Assembly (NCBI RefSeq): GCF_016026235.1
Contig: NZ_CP065613.1
DNA: 64,000 nt
Direction: 5' to 3' (one strand)
Origin: Escherichia coli
GTDB taxonomy: Bacteria > Pseudomonadota > Gammaproteobacteria > Enterobacterales > Enterobacteriaceae
Position 1 is the stretch's first letter. Each line of letters begins with the position of its first letter. Below the pieces are notes generated by a model that had not been told where the DNA came from, did not search any database, and worked only from the letters and a program-made list of their open reading frames with translations. A program made the translations under genes and the position numbers. Of the stretch, positions 1,419 to 54,976 are shown in pieces.

Positions 1419-3358
1419 ACGGCCTCCGGCGCAGTTTTTTGCGGACTCACGCGCTTACGATAGCGAGGATCAAACAGACACAGCAGTCCGCCCAACGCCA
1501 TCATCAGCCCGCCCGCCCAAATCCAGCGAACAAATGGTTTGTAGTAAAGACGCACGGCCCACGCGCCGTTTTCCAGCTCTTCACCGAGGGCCGCGTACAG
1601 GTCACGCGTGATGCCGCCGTCAATTGCCGCTTCGGTCATCATCGACCCGGCAGTGTTGTAATAACGTTTTTCCGCATACAGCACCGTTTCCGGTTTACCC
1701 TCTCGCGTTACGCCGATAGTCGCCACACCGCCACGCCAGTTCGGGCCAGTCACCTCTTTGACATCACGGAAGGTGAAGCGATATTCATGAATATCGACGC
1801 TATCGCCGGACTTCATGCGCACATCACGCTCAACGCTATAGTTCTGGCTAAAGGCAATGCCAACAATTGTCACTGCCAGCCCCAGGTGAGCCGCCACCAT
1901 CCCCCAATAACTGAAGGTGGTTTTCGTGCCGCGTGAAATACGCAGCACAGCTTCCGCAATTGCCAGCACCGCAATCCAGCAGGCCATTGCCAGGCCGAGC
2001 ACCGTCATCGCCACCACTTTGCTTTCGAACAGCCACGGCAACAGCAGAGACAGCACCAACGTAGAGATAAATGCGAAAATCAATAAATTGCGGATTTTAC
2101 GTGGGCGATCGCGCCCCCAGCGCACCAGAGGACCGACACCCAGCAGTAGCGCAAACGGCACCATCAGCCAGGTAAACATGGTGTTGAAGAACGGTTCGCC
2201 AATCGAAATACTGCCCAGTCCCAGTTGCTTGTGCACCAGCGGCAGCAGCGTCCCCAGCAACACCACCAGCATCGCGGCGACCAGCAAAACGTTGTTCGCT
2301 AACAGCAAAGATTCCCGCGACCACAGCGCATTGTTTACGCGTGAGCGAACTTTGTGTCCACGCGCGGCAAACAGCAGCAGCGAACCGCCAATCACCAGCA
2401 CCATAAAGGCGAGGATAAACATACCGCGCGCCGGATCAGACGCAAACGCGTGTACCGATACCAGCACGCCGGAACGCACGAGGAAAGTCCCCAACAGACA
2501 CAACGAGAAGGCACTGATTGCCAGCAGTAATGTCCACGCTTTGAAGCTGGCGCGTTGTTCAGTGACCGCCAGTGAGTGCATCAGCGCAGTCCCCACCAGC
2601 CACGGCATAAACGAGGCGTTTTCTACCGGATCCCAGAACCACCAGCCACCCCAGCCGAGTTCGTAATAGGCCCATGCGGAACCGAGCACGATGCCGAGCG
2701 TCAGGAAGATCCACGCTGCCAGCGTCCACGGACGAGTAAAACGCGCATAAGTGCTGTCCAGACGCCCGCTCAACAAAGAAGCAATGGCAAAAGCAAACGC
2801 CACCGAGAACCCCACGTACCCCATATAGAGCAGAGGCGGATGGAAGATCAGCCCCGGATCCTGCAACAGCGGGTTAAGATCGCGCCCTTCAATCGGGAAG
2901 TTCGGCAGCGTGCGTGAGAACGGGTTAGAGGTAAAGAGAATGAACAGCAAAAAGCCGACGCTGACCATCCCCATTATCGCCAGTACACGGGCCACAATAT
3001 CCAGCGGAATACGCTGACTAAAAATCGCCACCGCAAAGGTCCAGCCGCTCATCAGCAGCACCCACAGCAGAAGCGAACCTTCATGCGCGCCCCAGGTAGC
3101 CGCCACGCGATACCATACCGGAAGCTGGGTATTAGAGTTGCTGGCTACATAGGTGACGGTAAAGTCGTTGACCACGAAAGCATTGACCAGCACCAGAAAT
3201 GCGCCAGCCACAGACATAAACAGCAGCCAGGCAAACAAGCGGGAAGACGCCATCATGCGCGCATCTCCGCGCGCCACGCCCCATAGCGGATACACGGACA
3301 GCAGCAGCGCAATTCCGAGCGCCAGACACAGCAGCCCGTTACCAATTTCCGGCATCAT
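1415..3358 (-). CDS. ccmF: Cytochrome c heme lyase subunit CcmF (647 aa)
   Basis: 647-aa polytopic membrane ORF, 4-bp overlaps with neighbours, operon context. Confidence 0.95.
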
Positions 3359-3834
3359 GATGCTGGGTCCTTATAAACACTCGCCGGGCGACGGTGGTTA
3401 GCTTCCATCGCTTTCTCAACTTCTGGCGGCGTGTAGTTTTCGTCGTGTTTCGCCAGCACTTCTTTCGCGAGGATATGATTGCCTTTTTCCAGCTCGCCCT
3501 GCACCACAACGCCCTGCCCTTCACGGAACAGATCCGGCAAAATGCCTTCGTAAGAGACATCCACTGAGCCTTCAGCATCGTAAATAGTGAAGGTCACTTT
3601 CAGCGAATTGGGATCGCGCTGCACACTACCCGGCATCACCATCCCGCCAACGCGCAGACGCTGACCGACTTCCGGCATTTGCTGAGTTTCACGCTTGCCG
3701 TAGAGAATTTCCCCCGGCGTATAAAAGAGATCGATATTCGAGCGCAGCGCATATAGCACCAGACCGATAGTCAGCGCCAGCCCTGCCAACACGGCACAGG
3801 CAATCCACAAGCGGTTTTTACGGCGAATATTCAT
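3355..3834 (-). CDS. ccmE: Heme chaperone CcmE (159 aa)
   Basis: 159-aa ORF with N-terminal membrane anchor; operon position. Confidence 0.95.
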
Positions 3835-4040
3835 GCAGCCTCCTGCTGTTGCGCAGCACGTAAACGCGCCTCACGCGCCCGCTGTTGCGCCACACCACGC
3901 AGAATTGCGCGATGTTGCATCACCGAGTGCACGACCAAAACAACCAGCGGAATAACGGTCATCACCACCGCCAGCCAGACAAAAAAGGCGTAACCGCCCA
4001 TTGCGAAAAATTCATTCCAGGAAGCAAATGCAGGGGTCAT
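3831..4040 (-). CDS. ccmD: Heme exporter protein CcmD (69 aa)
   Basis: 69-aa small membrane ORF between ccmC and ccmE. Confidence 0.9.
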
Positions 4041-4774
4041 TTACGGCCTCTTTTCAGTATCAGTTCACTCACCCACGGACGGCGTTTTTCCATCAGCAAA
4101 ATCAAATTACGCATCCGCATCAGCGTCAGCGTGGCAGACAGGAGCAGGAAGCCAAAAATCGACCAGCGCAGCGGCGAACGCATCGCCGGATCGATACTTT
4201 GCTGCATCCGCGTTGATCCCTGATGCAGGGTGTTCCACCACTCCACGGAGTAATGAATAATCGGCAGATTCACCACGCCAATCAGCACCAGGATACCTGC
4301 CGCACGGCCCGCCAGACGGCGGTCGTCGAAGGCGTGCCACAGGGCAATCACACCCACATACAAAAACAGCAGCACCAGTTCAGAAGTCAGACGTGCATCC
4401 CATACCCACCAGGTGCCCCACATCGGTTTTCCCCATGCAGAGCCGGTAACCAGGGCAATAAAGGTAAACACGGCACCAATGGGGGCCATCGCCGCCACCG
4501 CCAGGTTGGCCATTTTCATCTGCCAGACAAGGCCAATAAACGCTGCCACTGCCATTGATGCATAAATGCCCATCGACCAGATCGCCGCAGGCACATGCAG
4601 GTAGATAATGCGGTAGCTATTTCCCTGCTGATAATCAGCCGGAGCAAAGCCGAATCCCCAGATCCAGCCGACGGTAAGCACGACCACACTGGCAATTGCC
4701 AGCCACGGTATAAACCAGCCACAGATTTGATACAGCCGTGGTGGGATCGCCAGTTGATGCAGTGTTTTCCACAT
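4037..4774 (-). CDS. ccmC: Heme exporter protein CcmC (245 aa)
   Basis: ORF track gives 253 aa; start moved to internal Met (MWKTLHQL...) matching known 245-aa CcmC. Confidence 0.9.
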   Translation of the reverse strand: MWKTLHQLAIPPRLYQICGWFIPWLAIASVVVLTVGWIWGFGFAPADYQQGNSYRIIYLHVPAAIWSMGIYASMAVAAFIGLVWQMKMANLAVAAMAPIGAVFTFIALVTGSAWGKPMWGTWWVWDARLTSELVLLFLYVGVIALWHAFDDRRLAGRAAGILVLIGVVNLPIIHYSVEWWNTLHQGSTRMQQSIDPAMRSPLRWSIFGFLLLSATLTLMRMRNLILLMEKRRPWVSELILKRGRK

Positions 4775-4815
4775 AGTTTCGATACCAGACTCGAACAAAA
4801 ATCAGTAATCCAGCG

Positions 4816-5478
4816 TTATTGAATGCTGATTCGTAACGCTGCCGCCGTCGCAAAAGGACTTAATGTCGCGGTGCCTGCCAGCAACGCGCCTAAAATTGCC
4901 AGATACCCGTCAACGGGCAAATGCATGGAAGCCGCGTCCATCGCGGCGGTGGCGAAGATGAGTAATGGGATAGTCAGCGGTAACACCAGTATGCTGAGCA
5001 GCACACCACCGCGCTTAAGTCCCACTGTCAGCGCCACGCCCGGTGCACCGAGAAAGCCAAGCGTAGGCGTTCCCAGCAGCAGCGTCAGCGCCATCACTTG
5101 CCAGCCATAAACATCCATTCCCAGTAGCATTGCTACCAGTGGCGAAAGGATGAGTAACGGCAGACCGGTTACCATCCAGTGCGCCATCACCTTCGCCAGC
5201 ACAACGGCGGGCAAGGGTAACGGCAACAACATCAATTGTTCAAGACTGCCGTCCTGCAAATCGTCACGGAACAGTCGTTCCAGCGCCAGCAAGGATGAAA
5301 GCAGCGCAGCAACCCAGATAATGCCCGGTGCAATACGCGCCAGCAGTTGCGGCTCCGGACCGATACTGAGCGGAAAAAGGGTAATTACAATCAGGAAGAA
5401 CCACAGCGGGTTGGCGATTTCGGCGCTATGGCGAAACGCTACACGCAGCTCAAGACGGAAAATGCGCCAGAACATCAT
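4816..5478 (-). CDS. ccmB: Heme exporter permease CcmB (220 aa)
   Basis: 220-aa membrane ORF; operon position. Confidence 0.9.
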
Positions 5479-46574: not shown

Positions 46575-48860
46575 ATGAATCAGAATCTGCTGGTGACAAA
46601 GCGCGACGGTAGCACAGAGCGCATCAATCTCGACAAAATCCATCGCGTTCTGGATTGGGCGGCAGAAGGACTGCATAACGTTTCGATTTCCCAGGTCGAG
46701 CTGCGCTCCCACATTCAGTTTTATGACGGTATCAAGACCTCTGACATCCACGAAACTATTATCAAGGCTGCCGCAGACCTGATCTCCCGTGATGCGCCGG
46801 ATTATCAGTATCTCGCCGCGCGCCTGACGATCTTCCACCTGCGTAAAAAAGCCTACGGCCAGTTTGAGCCGCCTGCGCTGTACGACCACGTGGTGAAAAT
46901 GGTCGAGATGGGCAAATACGATAATCATCTGCTGGAAGACTACACGGAAGAAGAGTTCAAGCAGATGGACACGTTTATCGATCACGACCGTGATATGACC
47001 TTCTCTTATGCTGCCGTTAAGCAACTGGAAGGCAAATATCTGGTACAGAACCGCGTGACCGGCGAAATCTACGAAAGCGCCCAGTTCCTTTATATTCTGG
47101 TTGCCGCGTGCCTGTTCTCGAACTACCCGCGTGAAACGCGCCTGCAATATGTGAAGCGTTTTTACGACGCGGTTTCCACATTTAAAATTTCGCTGCCGAC
47201 GCCAATCATGTCCGGCGTGCGTACCCCGACTCGTCAGTTCAGCTCCTGCGTACTGATCGAGTGCGGCGACAGCCTGGATTCCATCAACGCCACCTCCAGC
47301 GCGATTGTGAAATATGTTTCCCAGCGTGCCGGGATCGGCATCAACGCCGGGCGTATTCGTGCGCTGGGTAGCCCGATTCGCGGTGGCGAAGCGTTCCATA
47401 CCGGCTGCATTCCGTTCTACAAACATTTCCAGACTGCGGTGAAATCCTGCTCTCAGGGCGGCGTGCGCGGCGGTGCGGCAACGCTGTTCTACCCGATGTG
47501 GCATCTGGAAGTGGAAAGCCTGCTGGTGTTGAAAAACAACCGTGGTGTGGAAGGCAACCGCGTGCGTCATATGGACTACGGGGTACAAATCAACAAACTG
47601 ATGTATACCCGTCTGCTGAAAGGTGAAGATATCACCCTGTTCAGCCCGTCCGACGTACCGGGGCTGTACGACGCATTCTTCGCCGATCAGGAAGAGTTTG
47701 AACGCCTGTATACCAAATATGAGAAAGACGACAGCATCCGCAAGCAGCGTGTGAAAGCCGTTGAGCTGTTCTCGCTGATGATGCAGGAACGTGCGTCTAC
47801 CGGTCGTATCTATATTCAGAACGTTGACCACTGCAATACCCATAGCCCGTTTGATCCGACCATCGCGCCAGTGCGTCAGTCTAACCTGTGCCTGGAGATA
47901 GCCCTGCCGACCAAACCGCTGAACGACGTCAACGACGAGAACGGTGAAATCGCGCTGTGTACGCTGTCTGCTTTCAACCTGGGCGCAATTAATAGCCTGG
48001 ATGAACTGGAAGAGCTGGCAATTCTGGCGGTTCGTGCACTTGACGCGCTGCTGGATTATCAGGATTACCCGATCCCGGCCGCCAAACGTGGAGCGATGGG
48101 TCGTCGTACGCTGGGTATTGGTGTGATCAACTTCGCTTACTACCTGGCGAAGCACGGTAAACGTTACTCCGACGGCAGCGCCAACAACCTGACGCATAAA
48201 ACCTTCGAAGCGATTCAGTATTACCTGCTGAAAGCGTCTAATGAGCTGGCGAAAGAGCAAGGCGCGTGCCCGTGGTTTAACGAAACCACTTACGCGAAAG
48301 GGATCCTGCCGATCGATACCTATAAGAAAGATCTGGATGCCATCGCTAATGAACCACTGCATTACGACTGGGAAGCACTGCGTGAGTCAATCAAAACGCA
48401 CGGTCTGCGTAACTCCACGCTTTCTGCCCTGATGCCGTCCGAGACTTCTTCACAGATCTCTAACGCCACTAACGGTATTGAACCGCCGCGCGGTTACGTC
48501 AGCATCAAAGCGTCGAAAGACGGTATTCTGCGCCAGGTAGTGCCGGACTACGAGCATCTGCACGACGCCTATGAGCTGCTGTGGGAAATGCCGGGTAACG
48601 ATGGCTACCTGCAACTGGTGGGTATCATGCAGAAATTTATCGATCAGTCGATCTCTGCTAACACCAACTACGATCCGTCACGCTTCCCGTCAGGAAAAGT
48701 GCCGATGCAGCAATTGCTGAAAGACCTGCTCACCGCCTACAAATTCGGGGTCAAAACGCTGTATTATCAGAACACCCGTGACGGCGCTGAAGACGCGCAG
48801 GACGATCTGGTGCCGTCAATCCAGGACGATGGCTGCGAAAGCGGCGCATGTAAGATCTGA
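46575..48860 (+). CDS. nrdA: Ribonucleoside-diphosphate reductase 1 alpha subunit (761 aa)
   Basis: Full-length match to NrdA (MNQNLLVTKRDGSTERINLDKIHRVL...). Confidence 0.98.
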   Translation: MNQNLLVTKRDGSTERINLDKIHRVLDWAAEGLHNVSISQVELRSHIQFYDGIKTSDIHETIIKAAADLISRDAPDYQYLAARLTIFHLRKKAYGQFEPPALYDHVVKMVEMGKYDNHLLEDYTEEEFKQMDTFIDHDRDMTFSYAAVKQLEGKYLVQNRVTGEIYESAQFLYILVAACLFSNYPRETRLQYVKRFYDAVSTFKISLPTPIMSGVRTPTRQFSSCVLIECGDSLDSINATSSAIVKYVSQRAGIGINAGRIRALGSPIRGGEAFHTGCIPFYKHFQTAVKSCSQGGVRGGAATLFYPMWHLEVESLLVLKNNRGVEGNRVRHMDYGVQINKLMYTRLLKGEDITLFSPSDVPGLYDAFFADQEEFERLYTKYEKDDSIRKQRVKAVELFSLMMQERASTGRIYIQNVDHCNTHSPFDPTIAPVRQSNLCLEIALPTKPLNDVNDENGEIALCTLSAFNLGAINSLDELEELAILAVRALDALLDYQDYPIPAAKRGAMGRRTLGIGVINFAYYLAKHGKRYSDGSANNLTHKTFEAIQYYLLKASNELAKEQGACPWFNETTYAKGILPIDTYKKDLDAIANEPLHYDWEALRESIKTHGLRNSTLSALMPSETSSQISNATNGIEPPRGYVSIKASKDGILRQVVPDYEHLHDAYELLWEMPGNDGYLQLVGIMQKFIDQSISANTNYDPSRFPSGKVPMQQLLKDLLTAYKFGVKTLYYQNTRDGAEDAQDDLVPSIQDDGCESGACKI

Positions 48861-49041
48861 TATTGAGATGCCGGATGCGGCGTAAACGCCTTATCAGGCC
48901 TACGGCTCGGTTTGTAGGCCTGATTAGACGCGCCAGCGTCGCATCAGGCTCCGGGTGCCGGATGCAGCGTGAACGCCTTATCCGGCCTACGGCTCGGTTT
49001 GTAGGCCTGATTAGACGCGCCAGCGTCGCATCAGGCACAGG
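48861..49041. repeat. Two tandem REP/BIME units between nrdA and nrdB
   Basis: Direct repetition of gccggatgcggcgtaaacgccttatc(a/c)ggcctacggctcggtttgtaggcctgattagacgcgccagcgtcgcatcaggc. Confidence 0.85.
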
Positions 49042-49092
49042 ATGCGGCGTAAAATGCCTTATCCGGCATTAAACTCCCAACAGGACACACTC

Positions 49093-50223
49093 ATGGCATA
49101 TACCACCTTTTCACAGACGAAAAATGATCAGCTCAAAGAACCGATGTTCTTTGGTCAGCCGGTCAACGTGGCTCGCTACGATCAGCAAAAATATGACATC
49201 TTCGAAAAGCTGATCGAAAAGCAGCTCTCTTTCTTCTGGCGTCCGGAAGAAGTTGACGTTTCTCGTGACCGTATCGATTACCAGGCGCTGCCTGAACACG
49301 AAAAACACATCTTTATCAGCAACCTGAAATATCAGACACTGCTGGATTCCATTCAGGGCCGTAGCCCGAACGTGGCACTGCTGCCGCTGATCTCGATCCC
49401 GGAACTGGAGACCTGGGTCGAAACCTGGGCGTTTTCAGAAACGATTCATTCCCGTTCCTATACTCATATCATTCGTAATATCGTTAACGATCCGTCTGTT
49501 GTGTTTGACGATATCGTCACCAACGAGCAGATCCAGAAACGTGCGGAAGGGATCTCCAGCTATTACGATGAGCTGATCGAAATGACCAGCTACTGGCATC
49601 TGCTGGGCGAAGGTACCCACACCGTTAACGGTAAAACTGTGACCGTTAGCCTGCGCGAGCTGAAGAAAAAACTGTATCTCTGCCTGATGAGCGTTAACGC
49701 GCTGGAAGCGATTCGTTTCTACGTCAGCTTTGCTTGTTCCTTCGCATTTGCAGAACGCGAATTGATGGAAGGCAACGCCAAAATTATTCGCCTGATTGCC
49801 CGCGACGAAGCCCTGCACCTGACCGGCACCCAGCATATGCTGAATCTGCTGCGCAGCGGCGCGGACGATCCTGAGATGGCGGAAATTGCCGAAGAGTGTA
49901 AGCAGGAGTGCTATGACCTGTTTGTTCAGGCAGCTCAACAGGAGAAAGACTGGGCGGATTATCTGTTCCGCGACGGTTCGATGATTGGTCTGAATAAAGA
50001 CATTCTCTGCCAGTACGTTGAATACATCACCAATATCCGTATGCAGGCAGTCGGTTTGGATCTGCCGTTCCAGACGCGCTCCAACCCGATCCCATGGATC
50101 AACACCTGGCTGGTGTCTGATAACGTGCAGGTTGCTCCGCAGGAAGTGGAAGTCAGTTCTTATCTGGTCGGGCAGATTGACGCGGAAGTGGACACCGACG
50201 ATTTGAGTAACTTCCAACTCTGA
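49093..50223 (+). CDS. nrdB: Ribonucleoside-diphosphate reductase 1 beta subunit (376 aa)
   Basis: ORF track start lies in the REP region; start moved to [22 protein letters not shown] matching NrdB. Confidence 0.97.
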
Positions 50224-50477
50224 TGGCCCGCGTTACCCTGCGCATCACTGGCACACAACTGCTGTGCCAGGATGAACACCCTTCCCTTCTGGCGGCGCTG
50301 GAATCCCACAATGTGGCGGTTGAGTATCAGTGTCGCGAAGGTTACTGCGGCTCCTGTCGCACCCGTCTGGTTGCAGGTCAGGTTGACTGGATTGCCGAAC
50401 CGTTAGCCTTTATTCAGCCGGGGGAAATTTTGCCCTGTTGTTGCCGGGCAAAAGGCGATATTGAAATCGAGATGTGA
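50223..50477 (+). CDS. yfaE: 2Fe-2S ferredoxin YfaE (84 aa)
   Basis: 84-aa ORF with CxxxxCxxC...C pattern (CREGYCGSC ... CCC) directly after nrdB. Confidence 0.9.
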   Translation: MARVTLRITGTQLLCQDEHPSLLAALESHNVAVEYQCREGYCGSCRTRLVAGQVDWIAEPLAFIQPGEILPCCCRAKGDIEIEM

Positions 50478-50530: not shown

Positions 50531-51181
50531 TTACATGGCGTAGTAATACGCTTTCACCTGCTCCCAGTCCGCTTTGGGGATTGGCTCCAGATATTTTTCC
50601 AGCTGGCGGAAGTCATGATTAATCGCTTTATCGCGACGCAAGCGGCGACGACTTTTCTCCAGGTCAAGAAAACCAGCTTCTGCATTACCTTCTGTTTTCA
50701 CATAGATATGGCGAACATAACAACAGCCATGCTGACGATTAATGCTATGCATTTTCTTAAACGCCAGCGCCACTGCTTTCAACATGGCTTGCCGTACTTC
50801 GTCAGAATAAGGCGATACTGCATGCTGGGCATACCAGTCAGCAATGCTGATGAACCCCGCCATATCTTCAGTCACCAGCAACGCTCGCCATTCACCCTCA
50901 ATTTTCACCGCTTCACCAAAAACGATCTTCGGCACGATGACACCGGCCCGTTCCAGTTCTTTAATTACCGCAACCTCACGGACAATCGTTGGTCGGCCGA
51001 ACGGATAACGTACGGAATGAAACAGATGATGCGTCATGCGCTTTACATATAGCTTTTTGCCGTTGCGCTCGACGCATTGCACCCCGCTCATACCATTACG
51101 GCGATAGTTAGGCTCTTCAACCCAGTCGCCCTCTGTTGCCCACCAGTGATTAAATTCGTCGTGCTTTGCTGAAACTGCCAT
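50531..51181 (-). CDS. inaA: Acid-inducible Kdo/WaaP-family kinase InaA (216 aa)
   Basis: 216-aa ORF; K-12 synteny after yfaE. Confidence 0.88.
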   Translation of the reverse strand: MAVSAKHDEFNHWWATEGDWVEEPNYRRNGMSGVQCVERNGKKLYVKRMTHHLFHSVRYPFGRPTIVREVAVIKELERAGVIVPKIVFGEAVKIEGEWRALLVTEDMAGFISIADWYAQHAVSPYSDEVRQAMLKAVALAFKKMHSINRQHGCCYVRHIYVKTEGNAEAGFLDLEKSRRRLRRDKAINHDFRQLEKYLEPIPKADWEQVKAYYYAM

Positions 51182-51261: not shown

Positions 51262-52314
51262 TTAATGAATTTCTTTTGCCACTACTAGCGCGACACCGCT
51301 TTTACCCTTCATTTGCAGCGCATAGACTCCACCAGCCACTACCACTAATAGTGCGCCCAGCAGATAAATCATTCGGTAGCCAGTATGTGCAACCATCATC
51401 CCCATCACACAGGCTCCCAGCGCCAGGCCTGCATCCATCGCATTGAAGAAGAGGGAGTTTGCGACACCGATTTTATGCGGTTCCACTGAACTGATAATCT
51501 GCGTCTGAAAAACTGGCGTCACGGAACCATACCCGATACCAATCAACGCGCCAGAAACAACCATCATTATGCTTCCCTGGGTGTAGCCGAGAACCACCAG
51601 TCCTACCGTAAAGAACACAAGGCAAGGGTAAACCACATATTTCGGTCCTTTTTTGTCGCAGACATTGCCGGTAAAGGTACGGCAGATCATCAGGAAGATG
51701 GCGTAGCAAAGCAGGAAATTACTGGCCGCCGACATCAGGTTAAGTTCGCGAGCATAAAGCGCCAGAAAAGCAGAAACCCCGGCATACGAAAAGGTCATAA
51801 AAAAGGTGACCATCGCAAATGGCAACGCCGCGCGATCGAACATGGCGGCAAAGCCCATTTTCGGCGTTGAACCATCAGCATGGCTGATAACCGGCGGCAC
51901 TGTCATAATCAGCGACAGAATAATCCCCACCGCTGCCACGCCGGTGCATAGCCAGAAAGCCAGATTAAAGGCTTCCCAGCGCGCCATATTCAGACCAATC
52001 CACGGCCCGACCACCATTGCCAGCCCCATTGCCAAAGAGAAAAAACTGATGCCCTCCCCACGTCGGGAGGCCGGGATCAGCCGCGCGGAAATCGTTCCTT
52101 TTACCGTAGTGATAACCCCGAAGGTAATACCATGAAGCACCCTAATAAAAAGCAGTGATTCTATTGAGTGGCAAAAAGGATACAGCGCAGAGACCACCAA
52201 AAAGGCCAGAGAAGAGAGCACCAGAATAGTTTTATTCGAATATTTACCCACCCATTGCCCGGCAAAGGGTCGAATAACAATCGCCGCAATTAAAAATAAT
52301 GTCACCAGCAGACC
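51262..52314 (-). pseudogene. MFS transporter gene, C-terminal part (about codons 51-396), interrupted by IS4
   Basis: Multi-TM ORF opening with an ORF-caller GTG inside the target duplication; continues the reading frame of the fragment at 53740-53889 once the IS4 and one duplication copy are removed. Confidence 0.8.
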
Positions 52315-53739
52315 TAATGCCAGTCAGTTAAGCAACTGACTGGCTCTTTTTCGGGGCTGTGGGGTATTTCCAGGGCCTCTCCTTTACCACTCTCGGGAAG
52401 GCCCTTCCCCTTCTCGTCGGTAATTTCACAAGTTGTCCCATACTTGCAAGATCGCGCATCAGCTCCGGTATACGTCCCGGTGAAGCGCCCTGCAATGTCA
52501 TCAGCATTCTCATCACCATTCCGCATGATTCTGAGAAACTCAGTTGATTCGGCCAGTAACCTTTCAGATGTTCCGCCATTTTAATCATCTGATATCTCAC
52601 CAGATTATAAGCCAGTAAGACACCCCACAGCTCTTGCTCCACAAGCTCCGGCTTTTTACTTCTCAGCGTCAGCCTGCTCAGTTGCATCGTCTGTTTTATC
52701 TCCCTGTATCCCAGTTCGATTTCCCAGCGATGACTGTACAGATCCGCCATTTCTCCTCCGGGGAAGCGCATGGCGTCCGTCATCGACGTCAGCAGATGGC
52801 AGACTTTTCCTTTGCGCGTCACGGTCAGCAGGCGGGCTGTCACTTCATTTCCCAGTCCCGGCCACTTTTTTCGTGCCTGCGGGCTGGTTTTCAGCTTCAC
52901 CAGATGATCGCCTTTACCCAGTTTTCTGAGCTCTTCATATTGCGCTCCCTTTCTGAGAGGTATCATCCAGTGGCGGTGTTCTCCCGCCAGGCTCCAGGCA
53001 TTTAACAGTCCCAGTGAGTAATAACCTTTATCCATTAACGTCAGAGTGTTATCGCCGGTTTGTTCTATAAGTTGCTCAGCAAGCTCATTTTCGCTGTTCT
53101 TCATCGTGCCGAAGGCTGCAGCCGTCAGCAGATGGCTGGTCAGTTCCATCTGGCAGACCATTTTGACCTGCGGGTAGAGCGCCGGGTTCCCGGCATGTGT
53201 CTGGCGGGGAAGGCTGCATCGTTCTCTGGTGTATCCGGTGTGCGCCAGAACACACCATCGATGGCCAGCAGGGTCAGGCCGCACCAGTGCGGATGCGGCG
53301 TGGCGTTATGCCAGAGCTGCGCTGTTTTCGTGAACACGCGGCGGACAGCCTCACTTCCCAGGCGCTGGCGGGCCTGAATAACGGCACTGGGGGCAACGAA
53401 GGGGCGATTGCCCGGCAGCATGATGTCCAGGCGATTCACAATCTGGTGAAGAGGTTCTTTACGCTCAAGCGCCATGCCAACAATACACCAGACCATCATT
53501 TCGAGGGGAAGACGGCGCTTGCGTAGCGTTACAGTACCTGATTCGGCAAGGCAACGAGAGATGAGTTCGGGGTCGAGGTAATCCCCCAGAGAAGTCAGTG
53601 GGTTACGCAGAGAATCGTAACGGGATACCAGATCAAGAGCCTGTCCAATGTGCATAAAAAAATCCGGAAACAAGTGAGCGTTTCCGGATTCTTACACAGC
53701 CACTGGATCGGTCAACTGATCCTTAACTGATCGGCATTA
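52315..53739 (-). mobile_element. IS4 (1425 bp) with imperfect terminal inverted repeats taatgccagtcagttaag / cttaactgatcggcatta and 12-bp target duplication caccagcagacc
   Basis: Transposase translation recognisable as IS4 InsG; the duplication sits at 52303-52314 and 53740-53751; ends cross-checked against ORF boundaries. Confidence 0.9.
52328..53673 (-). pseudogene. insG: IS4 transposase split into two overlapping frames (177 aa + 318 aa), apparent frameshift near 53196-53200
   Basis: ORF track shows 53140-53673 and 52328-53284 on the same strand in different frames; together they span a single roughly 442-aa transposase. Confidence 0.7.
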
Positions 53740-53889
53740 CACCAGCAGACCAGCTTTATCAGGGGATGCATGGAGACGATCGGAGATATAAATAGGTAAT
53801 AAGGTCAGCAACACATAAAAGACGAAAAAGATAATAAAGCTAATAATGGTGATTGCCCAAAAATCTTTCGTCCATAATTTTTCTTTCAT
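53740..53889 (-). pseudogene. MFS transporter gene, N-terminal part (about 50 codons), separated from the rest by IS4
   Basis: MKEKLWTKDFWAITIISFIIFFVFYVLLTLLPIYISDRL... first TM helix of an MFS protein; frame terminates at the TAA created by the IS4 end. Confidence 0.75.
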
Positions 53890-54053
53890 ACTAAACGACC
53901 CGTTCAAATGGCGCACAAGGACACCGCTCAGCATCACAGGCTGAACCACTACAGGTGCGTCAAAATGTGATTTACTCGATAGAAATAGAGTATAAATGGA
54001 TGCACTCTATAAGAGAAATTAATCGTTTTAATCATATTAATTAGATATTACTA

Positions 54054-54932
54054 ATGACACTAACCCAAATCCACACCCTGCTCGCCGTACTGGATTATGG
54101 CGGCTTTACCGAAGCCAGTAAGCGCCTGTTTATGACGCAATCCGCCGTAAGCCAGGCCATTGCCACCCTGGAGCAAGAGCTTGGCGTAGAGATCCTGATC
54201 CGCGAGCGGCGAAAAGCACTGCAGCTGACTGACGCCGGCTCACGCATCGCAAGCCATCTGCGGGCGATTACCCGTGAAGTGAACGCTGTGAAAGAAATTG
54301 CCGAGCAGGAAAAACATAACCCGACCAGAACGCTGCGCATCGGCTGCTTTCCCAGCGCCTGCGCGTGTATTTTACCGGGTATTATTCGCTATTTTGAAAC
54401 TTATCATCCGCAGATAAAAATCATTCCTTACGAAGAGAACAGCAGTGAAATTATTGATTCGGTGCAAAACGAAACTATCGATGCCGGTTTTGTCCATTTT
54501 CCGGTAACCGGAATGTATTCCGTCCCGGTATATCAGGATAAATTTACCGTGGTGCTGCCAGATGCTCATCCCCTGGCAAAAAATAACGCTATATCGGTGG
54601 AAGAACTGGTGGGAGAACCGCTCATTATCAGTAAGGGGCGTTATGAATTAAGCATTATGGCGTTATTTAAGGAAAAGAATATTACGCCGGTCATTAAATA
54701 TGAATTTAACCATCCAGATACGGCAATAAGTTTTATTCGCCAGGGATTAGGAATTGCTCTGTTACCGGAGCTGACGCTGAAAGCCGTCGCCGGTGAGTTA
54801 TGCTCTGTCCCGCTGGAGCCGACGTTTTATCGGCAAATTTCATTGCTGGTCAAAGAGGCGCCGGTAGAAGGCAGCCCATTGTTTTTATTGCAAATGTGTA
54901 TGGAAACCCTGGTGGTCAAAGGCATATTGTGA
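54054..54932 (+). CDS. LysR-family transcriptional regulator (292 aa)
   Basis: N-terminal HTH (LTQIHTLLAVLDYGGFTEASKRLFMTQSAVSQAIATLEQELG) and C-terminal substrate-binding domain; divergent from the MFS gene. Confidence 0.85.
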   Translation: MTLTQIHTLLAVLDYGGFTEASKRLFMTQSAVSQAIATLEQELGVEILIRERRKALQLTDAGSRIASHLRAITREVNAVKEIAEQEKHNPTRTLRIGCFPSACACILPGIIRYFETYHPQIKIIPYEENSSEIIDSVQNETIDAGFVHFPVTGMYSVPVYQDKFTVVLPDAHPLAKNNAISVEELVGEPLIISKGRYELSIMALFKEKNITPVIKYEFNHPDTAISFIRQGLGIALLPELTLKAVAGELCSVPLEPTFYRQISLLVKEAPVEGSPLFLLQMCMETLVVKGIL

Positions 54933-54976
54933 AAAGGGCATCCGGTCAGGTTTTGCCTTCCCGGATGCCTGTGTCA

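Follow-up and report, generated by a model that had tools for sequence, protein, structure and literature searches.

Here, we analyzed a divergently oriented gene pair, encoding a LysR-type regulator and a transporter of the major facilitator superfamily (MFS), that lies between inaA and glpQ in a stretch of 64,000 nucleotides from Escherichia coli (contig NZ_CP065613.1; this whole stretch is referred to as the window). We consider it likely that this pair is the orthologue of O-island 97 (OI-97) of E. coli O157, that it represents an ancestral pair in which the LysR-type protein activates an exporter-type MFS transporter, and that the transporter was lost in the window strain through an insertion of IS4. 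A preliminary description of this DNA had reported a complete regulator of 292 amino acids (aa) facing an IS4-split MFS gene across a short shared intergenic region, and all of its sequence-level statements hold.

A divergent LysR-MFS pair with an IS4-split transporter gene

The pair and the inserted element comprise the following features, obtained from open reading frame (ORF) calls and from reading of the sequence:

54054-54932, plus strand: intact gene of the LysR-type regulator (292 aa; ORF call, domains), a rare divergent allele of OI-97 Z3495 / K-12 YfaH
51262-53889, minus strand: whole span of the IS4-split MFS transporter gene (ORF call, sequence reading)
51262-52314, minus strand: 3' part of the MFS gene, codon 47 to stop, called by gene callers as a truncated 'MFS transporter' of 347 aa
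53740-53889, minus strand: 5' part of the MFS gene, codons 1-50, with its ATG at 53889-53887 (ORF call, sequence reading)
52315-53739, minus strand: IS4, 1425 bp, 99.4% identical to IS4
52303-52314: left copy of the IS4 target duplication, CACCAGCAGACC, covering MFS codons 47-50 (sequence reading)
53740-53751: right copy of the target duplication, CACCAGCAGACC (sequence reading)
53890-54053: shared intergenic control region, 164 bp (sequence reading, alignment)

IS4 is typically ~1426 bp long, has terminal inverted repeats of 18 bp, duplicates 11-13 bp of its target and encodes a DDE transposase of 442 aa. The element in the window agrees with this in its length, in its inverted repeats (18 bp, matching at 16/18 positions) and in the size of the duplication, a perfect 12-bp direct repeat on its two flanks. 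An intact transposase gene of 442 aa was not found. Instead, the transposase is divided between two ORFs (53140-53673 and 52328-53284), because one G is missing from the G-run at 53206-53209, which counts four G in the window and five in both reference IS4 and assembly GCA_900449985.1. The missing base reflects either a true frameshift or an error in sequencing the homopolymer; the copy of the same insertion in GCA_900449985.1 carries the intact 442-aa gene. As this independent assembly matches the window over 9044 bp save one G, IS4 insertion included, and as the 347-aa truncated MFS ORF is found in exact form on ~21 public contigs labelled E. coli, the insertion is not an artefact of assembly. 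Among 5426 complete RefSeq genomes of E. coli, none carries IS4 at this site. A Shigella origin of the window, which the IS4 insertion had suggested, was dropped, since both the exact truncated ORF and the entire 9-kb region occur in assemblies with an E. coli label.

Excision in silico of IS4 together with one repeat copy yields an uninterrupted MFS_1 protein of 396 aa. Judging from the sequence, the transporter is destroyed by IS4 at codons 47-50, with the regulator and its predicted operator left intact and the regulator hence an orphan. The earlier view of the cassette as currently inactivated is thus correct for the transporter but not for the LysR gene or the intergenic region, both of which are whole. 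The same locus is present without IS4 in FDAARGOS_943, which differs from the window at 2/6941 bases; strain F9792 likewise carries a window-type pair that is intact. One of the two differences is T88S in the window MFS protein (window position 52191). Position 88 is Thr in 6/6 orthologues compared, three of them alleles of E. coli and the others from Salmonella, Klebsiella and Kluyvera, and the exchange may reflect drift after inactivation of the transporter.

The pair is orthologous to OI-97 and syntenic in other genera

OI-97 of O157 has been described as a 2006-bp region that holds z3494 (MFS_YfcJ-like) and z3495 (LysR-type) (Wang et al. 2024, PMC10819331). In O157 Xuzhou21, we find the same pair at the same site, with an MFS protein 99% identical to that of the window. 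The deletion primers published for O157 match the locus sequences that we retrieved: the z3495 deletion primer corresponds to O157 intergenic sequence containing both operator dyads described below, and the OI-97 deletion primer ends at the CAGATAAA junction to which we return with the K-12 locus. As judged by this sequence agreement, the window pair is the orthologue of OI-97. The two loci share their site (inaA, MFS and LysR genes back to back, then glpQ), the divergent layout and the operator dyads, and the predicted recognition helices of the two regulators are the same apart from T38A. They differ in the regulator itself, Z3495 being just 77% identical in nucleotides (nt) and 84% in aa to the window protein, in the length of the intergenic region (151 bp in O157 vs 164 bp in the window), and in an extra orphan ORF of 356 aa before glpQ in O157, whereas the window has the IS4-split transporter. 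The preliminary description had treated the cassette as uncharacterised, which needs correction: the O157 orthologue is published, and its regulator reportedly acts on rcsF and the enterocyte effacement locus (LEE) (PMC10819331).

Orthologues of the MFS protein with 84-86% aa identity are present in Salmonella, Klebsiella (oxytoca group) and Kluyvera, and those of the regulator in E. albertii, Salmonella, Citrobacter, Scandinavium, Klebsiella, Pluralibacter and Leminorella. The position between yfaE and the glp genes, with the two genes divergent, is the same in Salmonella, Klebsiella, Kluyvera, Citrobacter, Scandinavium and Pluralibacter. The Leminorella pair is likewise divergent, with the unrelated genes dsbB, fadR and tusA around it. 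The alternative raised in the preliminary description, a regulator from a family with some other adjacent gene as its known target, is not borne out; the two genes keep together even in this unrelated neighbourhood. Strong purifying selection acts on both genes, with dN/dS values of 0.02-0.13 in all comparisons. More distant relatives of the regulator (33-36% identity; Pseudomonas and a metagenomic contig) face a gene for an EamA-type exporter.

The shared control region contains two conserved putative operator dyads

Our alignment of the control region covers eight genera with ten sequences, of which three are E. coli alleles. The elements that we recognize are:

54018-54032: dyad 1, ATTAATCGTTTTAAT, of the form ATTAA-N5-TTAAT, containing T-N11-A (alignment, window scan)
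54040-54055: dyad 2, ATTAGATATTACTAAT, of the form ATTAG-N6-CTAAT, containing T-N11-A and overlapping the LysR ATG (alignment, window scan)
53989-53994, minus strand: putative MFS -10 hexamer TATACT (alignment and reading)
54012-54017, minus strand: putative weak MFS -35 hexamer TTCTCT, 17 bp from the -10, with an invariant leading TT
53956-53971: conserved block TGCGTCAAAATGTGAT (alignment)

A search of the intergenic region for a T-N11-A box, as proposed beforehand, located this box in a conserved form and in two dyads. Dyad 1 is kept in all ten sequences save one half-site base in Pluralibacter, and dyad 2 is perfect in 8/10. Each is the sole match to its pattern in the 64-kb window, where 0.05 matches were expected for dyad 1 and 0.02 for dyad 2.

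The stretch to the left of dyad 1 is variable, and only A53989, T53993 and A53994 are invariant in it. These three bases correspond to T1, A2 and T6 of a minus-strand TAnnnT, and the hexamer reads TATAAT, TATTAT, TACTCT or TAGAAT in other aligned sequences. With the -10 placed here, transcription of the MFS gene would start near 53982, ~7 nt past the -10, and the dyads would be centred at ~-43 and ~-65. T-N11-A sites near -65 and -43 are the textbook recognition and activation arrangement of LysR-type activators. The window locus resembles classical activators such as BenM/benA, CbnR, CysB and OxyR in the HTH_1 plus LysR_substrate architecture, a length of ~300 aa, the divergent target, and T-N11-A dyads ~22 bp apart near -65/-43, one of which lies over the regulator's own start. 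Unlike these, the window regulator is without a close characterised relative: its best matches among solved structures have E = 1e-21 to 1e-19, and its scores against NCBIfam equivalogs of characterised regulators all fall far under the cut-offs.

Based on this arrangement, we propose that the LysR protein binds both dyads and, upon sensing a small molecule, would activate the transporter gene. It would also limit its own expression, and such autoregulation is likely because dyad 2 covers the start codon of the LysR gene. In the window strain, the orphan regulator may still act on other promoters.

Further candidates in the control region were considered and set aside. The TTGACG within the conserved block was rejected as an MFS -35, as every allele lacks a -10 at a distance of 16-18 bp and the spacing downstream is not constant. 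A scan hit on the minus strand (GTGTCA-18-TATGAT, 54060-54031) has its -10 in a non-conserved stretch. A conserved leader RNA structure around the inverted repeat GGCGCAC / GTGCGTC is not supported by RNAalifold, which returned -0.02 kcal/mol and no covarying pair for ten orthologues. The TGTGAT at 53966-53971 was examined as a CRP half-site, the second half of which is poor (2-3 of 5), and also as a promoter element of the LysR gene and as a third regulator site; we assign no role to it.

The transporter most probably serves efflux

The LysR protein comprises HTH_1 (PF00126, residues 3-62, 70.1 bits vs a cut-off of 26.6) and LysR_substrate (PF03466, residues 89-268, 123.8 bits). The restored MFS protein matches MFS_1 (PF07690) over residues 14-347 with 202.7 bits, which includes both six-helix halves, and a crude Kyte-Doolittle scan gives ~10-12 hydrophobic segments. 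Its best NCBIfam relatives are YfcJ-like and YhhS-like proteins and the staphylopine exporter CntE, and among solved structures the efflux pumps NorA and SotB come closest. With these proteins and the DHA1-type exporters it shares the MFS_1 fold and a length of ~396 aa. However, it differs from YfcJ/YhhS-type exporters in scoring 110.6 bits against PRK05122, the cut-off of which is 374, and 84.7 bits against PRK12382, a second model of the YfcJ/YhhS type with a cut-off of 364. As judged by these scores, the transporter resembles the YfcJ/YhhS subfamily without being a member and belongs to a separate uncharacterised subfamily.

Our best guess from these relationships is the efflux of a small molecule: a 12-helix-type MFS protein that is distantly related to YfcJ/YhhS, CntE, NorA and SotB would most likely export the inducer of the LysR protein or a related metabolite. 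That it instead imports a nutrient or signal sensed by the LysR protein is possible, though we find it doubtful. MFS_1 includes importers as well as exporters, and the protein gives a weak Sugar_tr match and weak matches to models of aromatic-acid, galactonate and sialate symporters. The top-scoring characterised relatives, however, are exporters, the distant relatives of the regulator are paired with EamA-type exporters, and in none of the eight genera examined do metabolic or catabolic genes stand beside the pair, which argues against uptake of a nutrient.

Several observations weigh against a LysR-activated exporter as the function of the pair. Both transport direction and substrate are guesses, since the subfamily matches lie far under the curated cut-offs. 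A consensus scan for promoters missed the proposed MFS promoter, the -35 of which matches at 3/6 positions. The TGTGAT is invariant in 10/10 aligned sequences and is unaccounted for by the model, and none of the plus-strand candidates for a promoter of the LysR gene, including TATAAA at 53991-53996 and a leaderless start, fits the conservation. The pair is dispensable in E. coli, given its repeated loss (see below). Finally, deletion of z3494 in O157 gave no phenotype, and the effect of the regulator was credited to rcsF and LEE (PMC10819331).

The reported rcsF/LEE role is compatible with control of the transporter

The last of these points leads to a different assignment, in which the regulator's real job lies elsewhere, i.e., in activation of rcsF and, via Rcs, of LEE, with the adjacent transporter not being its target. 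Deletion of z3495 lowered LEE transcripts, adherence and mouse colonisation, and Z3495 was found at the rcsF promoter by electrophoretic mobility shift assay and by chromatin immunoprecipitation (ChIP) with quantitative PCR (PMC10819331). The lack of any such phenotype upon z3494 deletion and the survival of the window regulator next to a dead transporter point in the same direction. Nevertheless, we regard this assignment as unlikely. Genera without LEE have conserved the pair as well as its operator dyads, and neither dyad occurs in the rcsF-metQ intergenic region of MG1655, even with two mismatches allowed.

Moreover, it appears that the published ChIP-seq experiment could not have scored the native site. 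The coordinates in its Supplementary Table S4 are K-12-like, with glpQ/glpA at 2.35 Mb as in MG1655, whereas the OI-97 locus of O157 lies at 3.00 Mb (PMC10819331). As K-12 is without OI-97, the OI-97 intergenic region, like O-island sequences in general, appears not to have been scorable there. The enrichments reported amount to just log2 1.2-1.8 (~2.3- to 3.5-fold) and fall largely in highly expressed genes. Control of rcsF and control of the transporter are in any case compatible and not mutually exclusive, and the link to rcsF may be genuine yet secondary. A literature search for STM2280 and STM2281 found nothing, and elsewhere in the literature yfaH features only as a neutral marker site or a table entry.

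A hyperdivergent allele of the regulator

Comparison of the window with O157 reveals a divergent block of ~1.2 kb (window 52300-52314 plus 53752-54936, i.e., 3301-4500 in the retrieved window locus L001), which extends from MFS codons ~1-45 through the intergenic region to the stop of the LysR gene. The values for the window vs O157, where pS and pN are the proportions of synonymous and nonsynonymous differences, are:

MFS gene overall: 94% nt and 99% aa identity, pS 0.22, dN/dS 0.02
MFS codons 1-45: pS 0.77 and pN 0.009, with dS saturated and dN/dS not computable
LysR gene: 77% nt and 84% aa identity, pS 0.71 (saturated), dN/dS ~0.05

For scale, pS is 0.63-0.75 when the LysR genes of E. coli and Salmonella are compared, and the neighbouring glpQ is 99.5% identical between the window and O157. 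The window-type allele occurs in full length in 104/5426 complete genomes, including enterohaemorrhagic E. coli (EHEC) O145:H28 and enterotoxigenic E. coli O169:H41, and no relative closer than 84% was found among 5.8 billion proteins. Since the predicted recognition helix is unchanged save T38A and both dyads are conserved, the two regulator alleles probably have the same DNA specificity; the effector domain differs at ~10% of residues.

The left edge of the block (52300-52314) and the IS4 target site (52303-52314) agree to within a few bases. This overlap is probably a coincidence, because the IS4-free FDAARGOS_943 has the same allele.

The two versions of the regulator and its operator-proximal DNA, deeply diverged and equally constrained, could represent a long-kept functional polymorphism, e.g. 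in effector specificity or regulon, or else an import from some Escherichia-like lineage not yet sampled; the regulator that outlives its transporter would then have been recruited to other targets, e.g. rcsF or LEE. We consider this reading of the locus quite unlikely as compared with an ancestral exporter pair that lost its transporter to IS4.

The locus is ancestral and has been lost repeatedly in E. coli

MG1655 retains between inaA and glpQ only the 207-nt pseudogene yfaH (b2238), in line with the statement in the preliminary description that K-12 holds a short remnant, and an intact pair is absent from K-12 at this position. A K-12 derivative, as annotated in RefSeq, has 105 nt from the MFS 3' end directly joined to 243 nt from the 3' end of the LysR gene. 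The junction, as compared with the O157 locus, falls in the 8-bp repeat CAGATAAA, which is found at both deletion ends. The K-12 state therefore arose by a single microhomology deletion of 1.87 kb, in which both 5' ends were lost together with the control region. The NCBIfam YfaH model PRK09729 matches residues 226-290 of the window regulator (E = 7.5e-40) with 134.9 bits, just below its cut-off of 139. K-12 yfaH thus lies at the same locus as a C-terminal remnant of the window regulator's family, but is unlike the window in lacking the 1.87 kb. The remnant belongs to the common, O157-like type of allele, with 92-95% identity to O157 vs 70-78% to the window allele.

We surveyed the 5426 complete E. 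coli genomes for the cassette, with the following outcome:

At least 80% of the cassette present: 1215/5426 genomes (~22%)
Common regulator allele in full length: 1119 genomes
K-12-type 3' remnant only: ~3100 genomes
Locus without a match (B2 strains such as Nissle and PMV-1): ~1050 genomes

The cassette is thus strain-variable, as had been supposed. In B2 strains, just ~19 nt of the MFS 3' end are left. Losses in E. coli have occurred in at least three independent ways, i.e., by microhomology deletion, by complete replacement in B2 and by IS4.

The preliminary description had called the pair an accessory module, which implies a gain. The identical position in six other genera and the two 3' ends kept in K-12 indicate, from comparative sequence, that the pair predates E. 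coli and is ancestral and repeatedly lost, not acquired. An island that certain lineages of E. coli acquired horizontally between inaA and glpQ could be argued from the absence or reduction of the cassette in ~78% of complete E. coli genomes, from a G+C content of 44-48% over the regulator vs 50-56% in nrdAB, and from the label of OI-97 as laterally acquired (PMC10819331); the hyperdivergent segment does indicate recombinational import of that 1.2-kb piece. For the pair as a whole, this origin is very unlikely: orientation as well as position is shared with the six genera, K-12-type strains show a loss and no empty site, B2 strains retain the MFS 3' end, the cassette is not surrounded by mobility genes, tRNA or flanking repeats, the divergence of the MFS protein between genera is in line with that of the adjacent core gene yfaE, and synteny already points to vertical descent of the MFS gene in Enterobacteriaceae.

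Neighbouring genes and further observations

Around the interrupted MFS gene (minus strand) and the LysR gene (plus strand), the window contains, in order:

46575-48860, plus strand: nrdA
49042-50223, plus strand: nrdB
50223-50477, plus strand: yfaE
50531-51181, minus strand: inaA
54977-56113, minus strand: glpQ, followed by glpT and glpA

Between the convergent stops of the LysR gene and glpQ, a 9-bp inverted repeat (GGCATCCGG ... CCGGATGCC, 15-nt loop, 54937-54969) was read from the sequence by eye and may be a shared terminator hairpin. The nrdA-nrdB intergenic region contains, at 48869-49036, two tandem 81-bp copies (48869-48949 and 48956-49036) that are 96% identical; they translate into repeated peptide strings and have the look of an array of repetitive extragenic palindromes or bacterial interspersed mosaic elements. 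The extra 356-aa orphan ORF of O157 Xuzhou21 (3947-5017 in the retrieved locus L002) is AT-rich, lies between the LysR gene and glpQ and is missing from the window. It is intact in O157 and frameshifted or IS1-disrupted in other E. coli (loci L011 and L012), and it gave no match in Pfam, NCBIfam or PADLOC.

Significance

Systems of this kind, with a LysR activator and a divergent MFS gene, are known, as is the locus (OI-97 / yfaH), and the pair is in this sense real but ordinary. The practical value of the analysis is modest. What it adds are the argument on ancestry, a model of the operator and promoter, a critical view of the published ChIP-seq, in which the native OI-97 site could not have shown up, and the divergent regulator allele. 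The presence of this allele in O145:H28 EHEC means that conclusions drawn on Z3495 of O157 may not transfer to such strains. The label of OI-97 is corrected, in that the locus appears as an ancestral enterobacterial one and not as the laterally acquired virulence island of the published account. With dyads proposed at ~-65 and ~-43, the operator model would make the native role of Z3495-type regulators, i.e., control of the adjacent transporter, directly testable.

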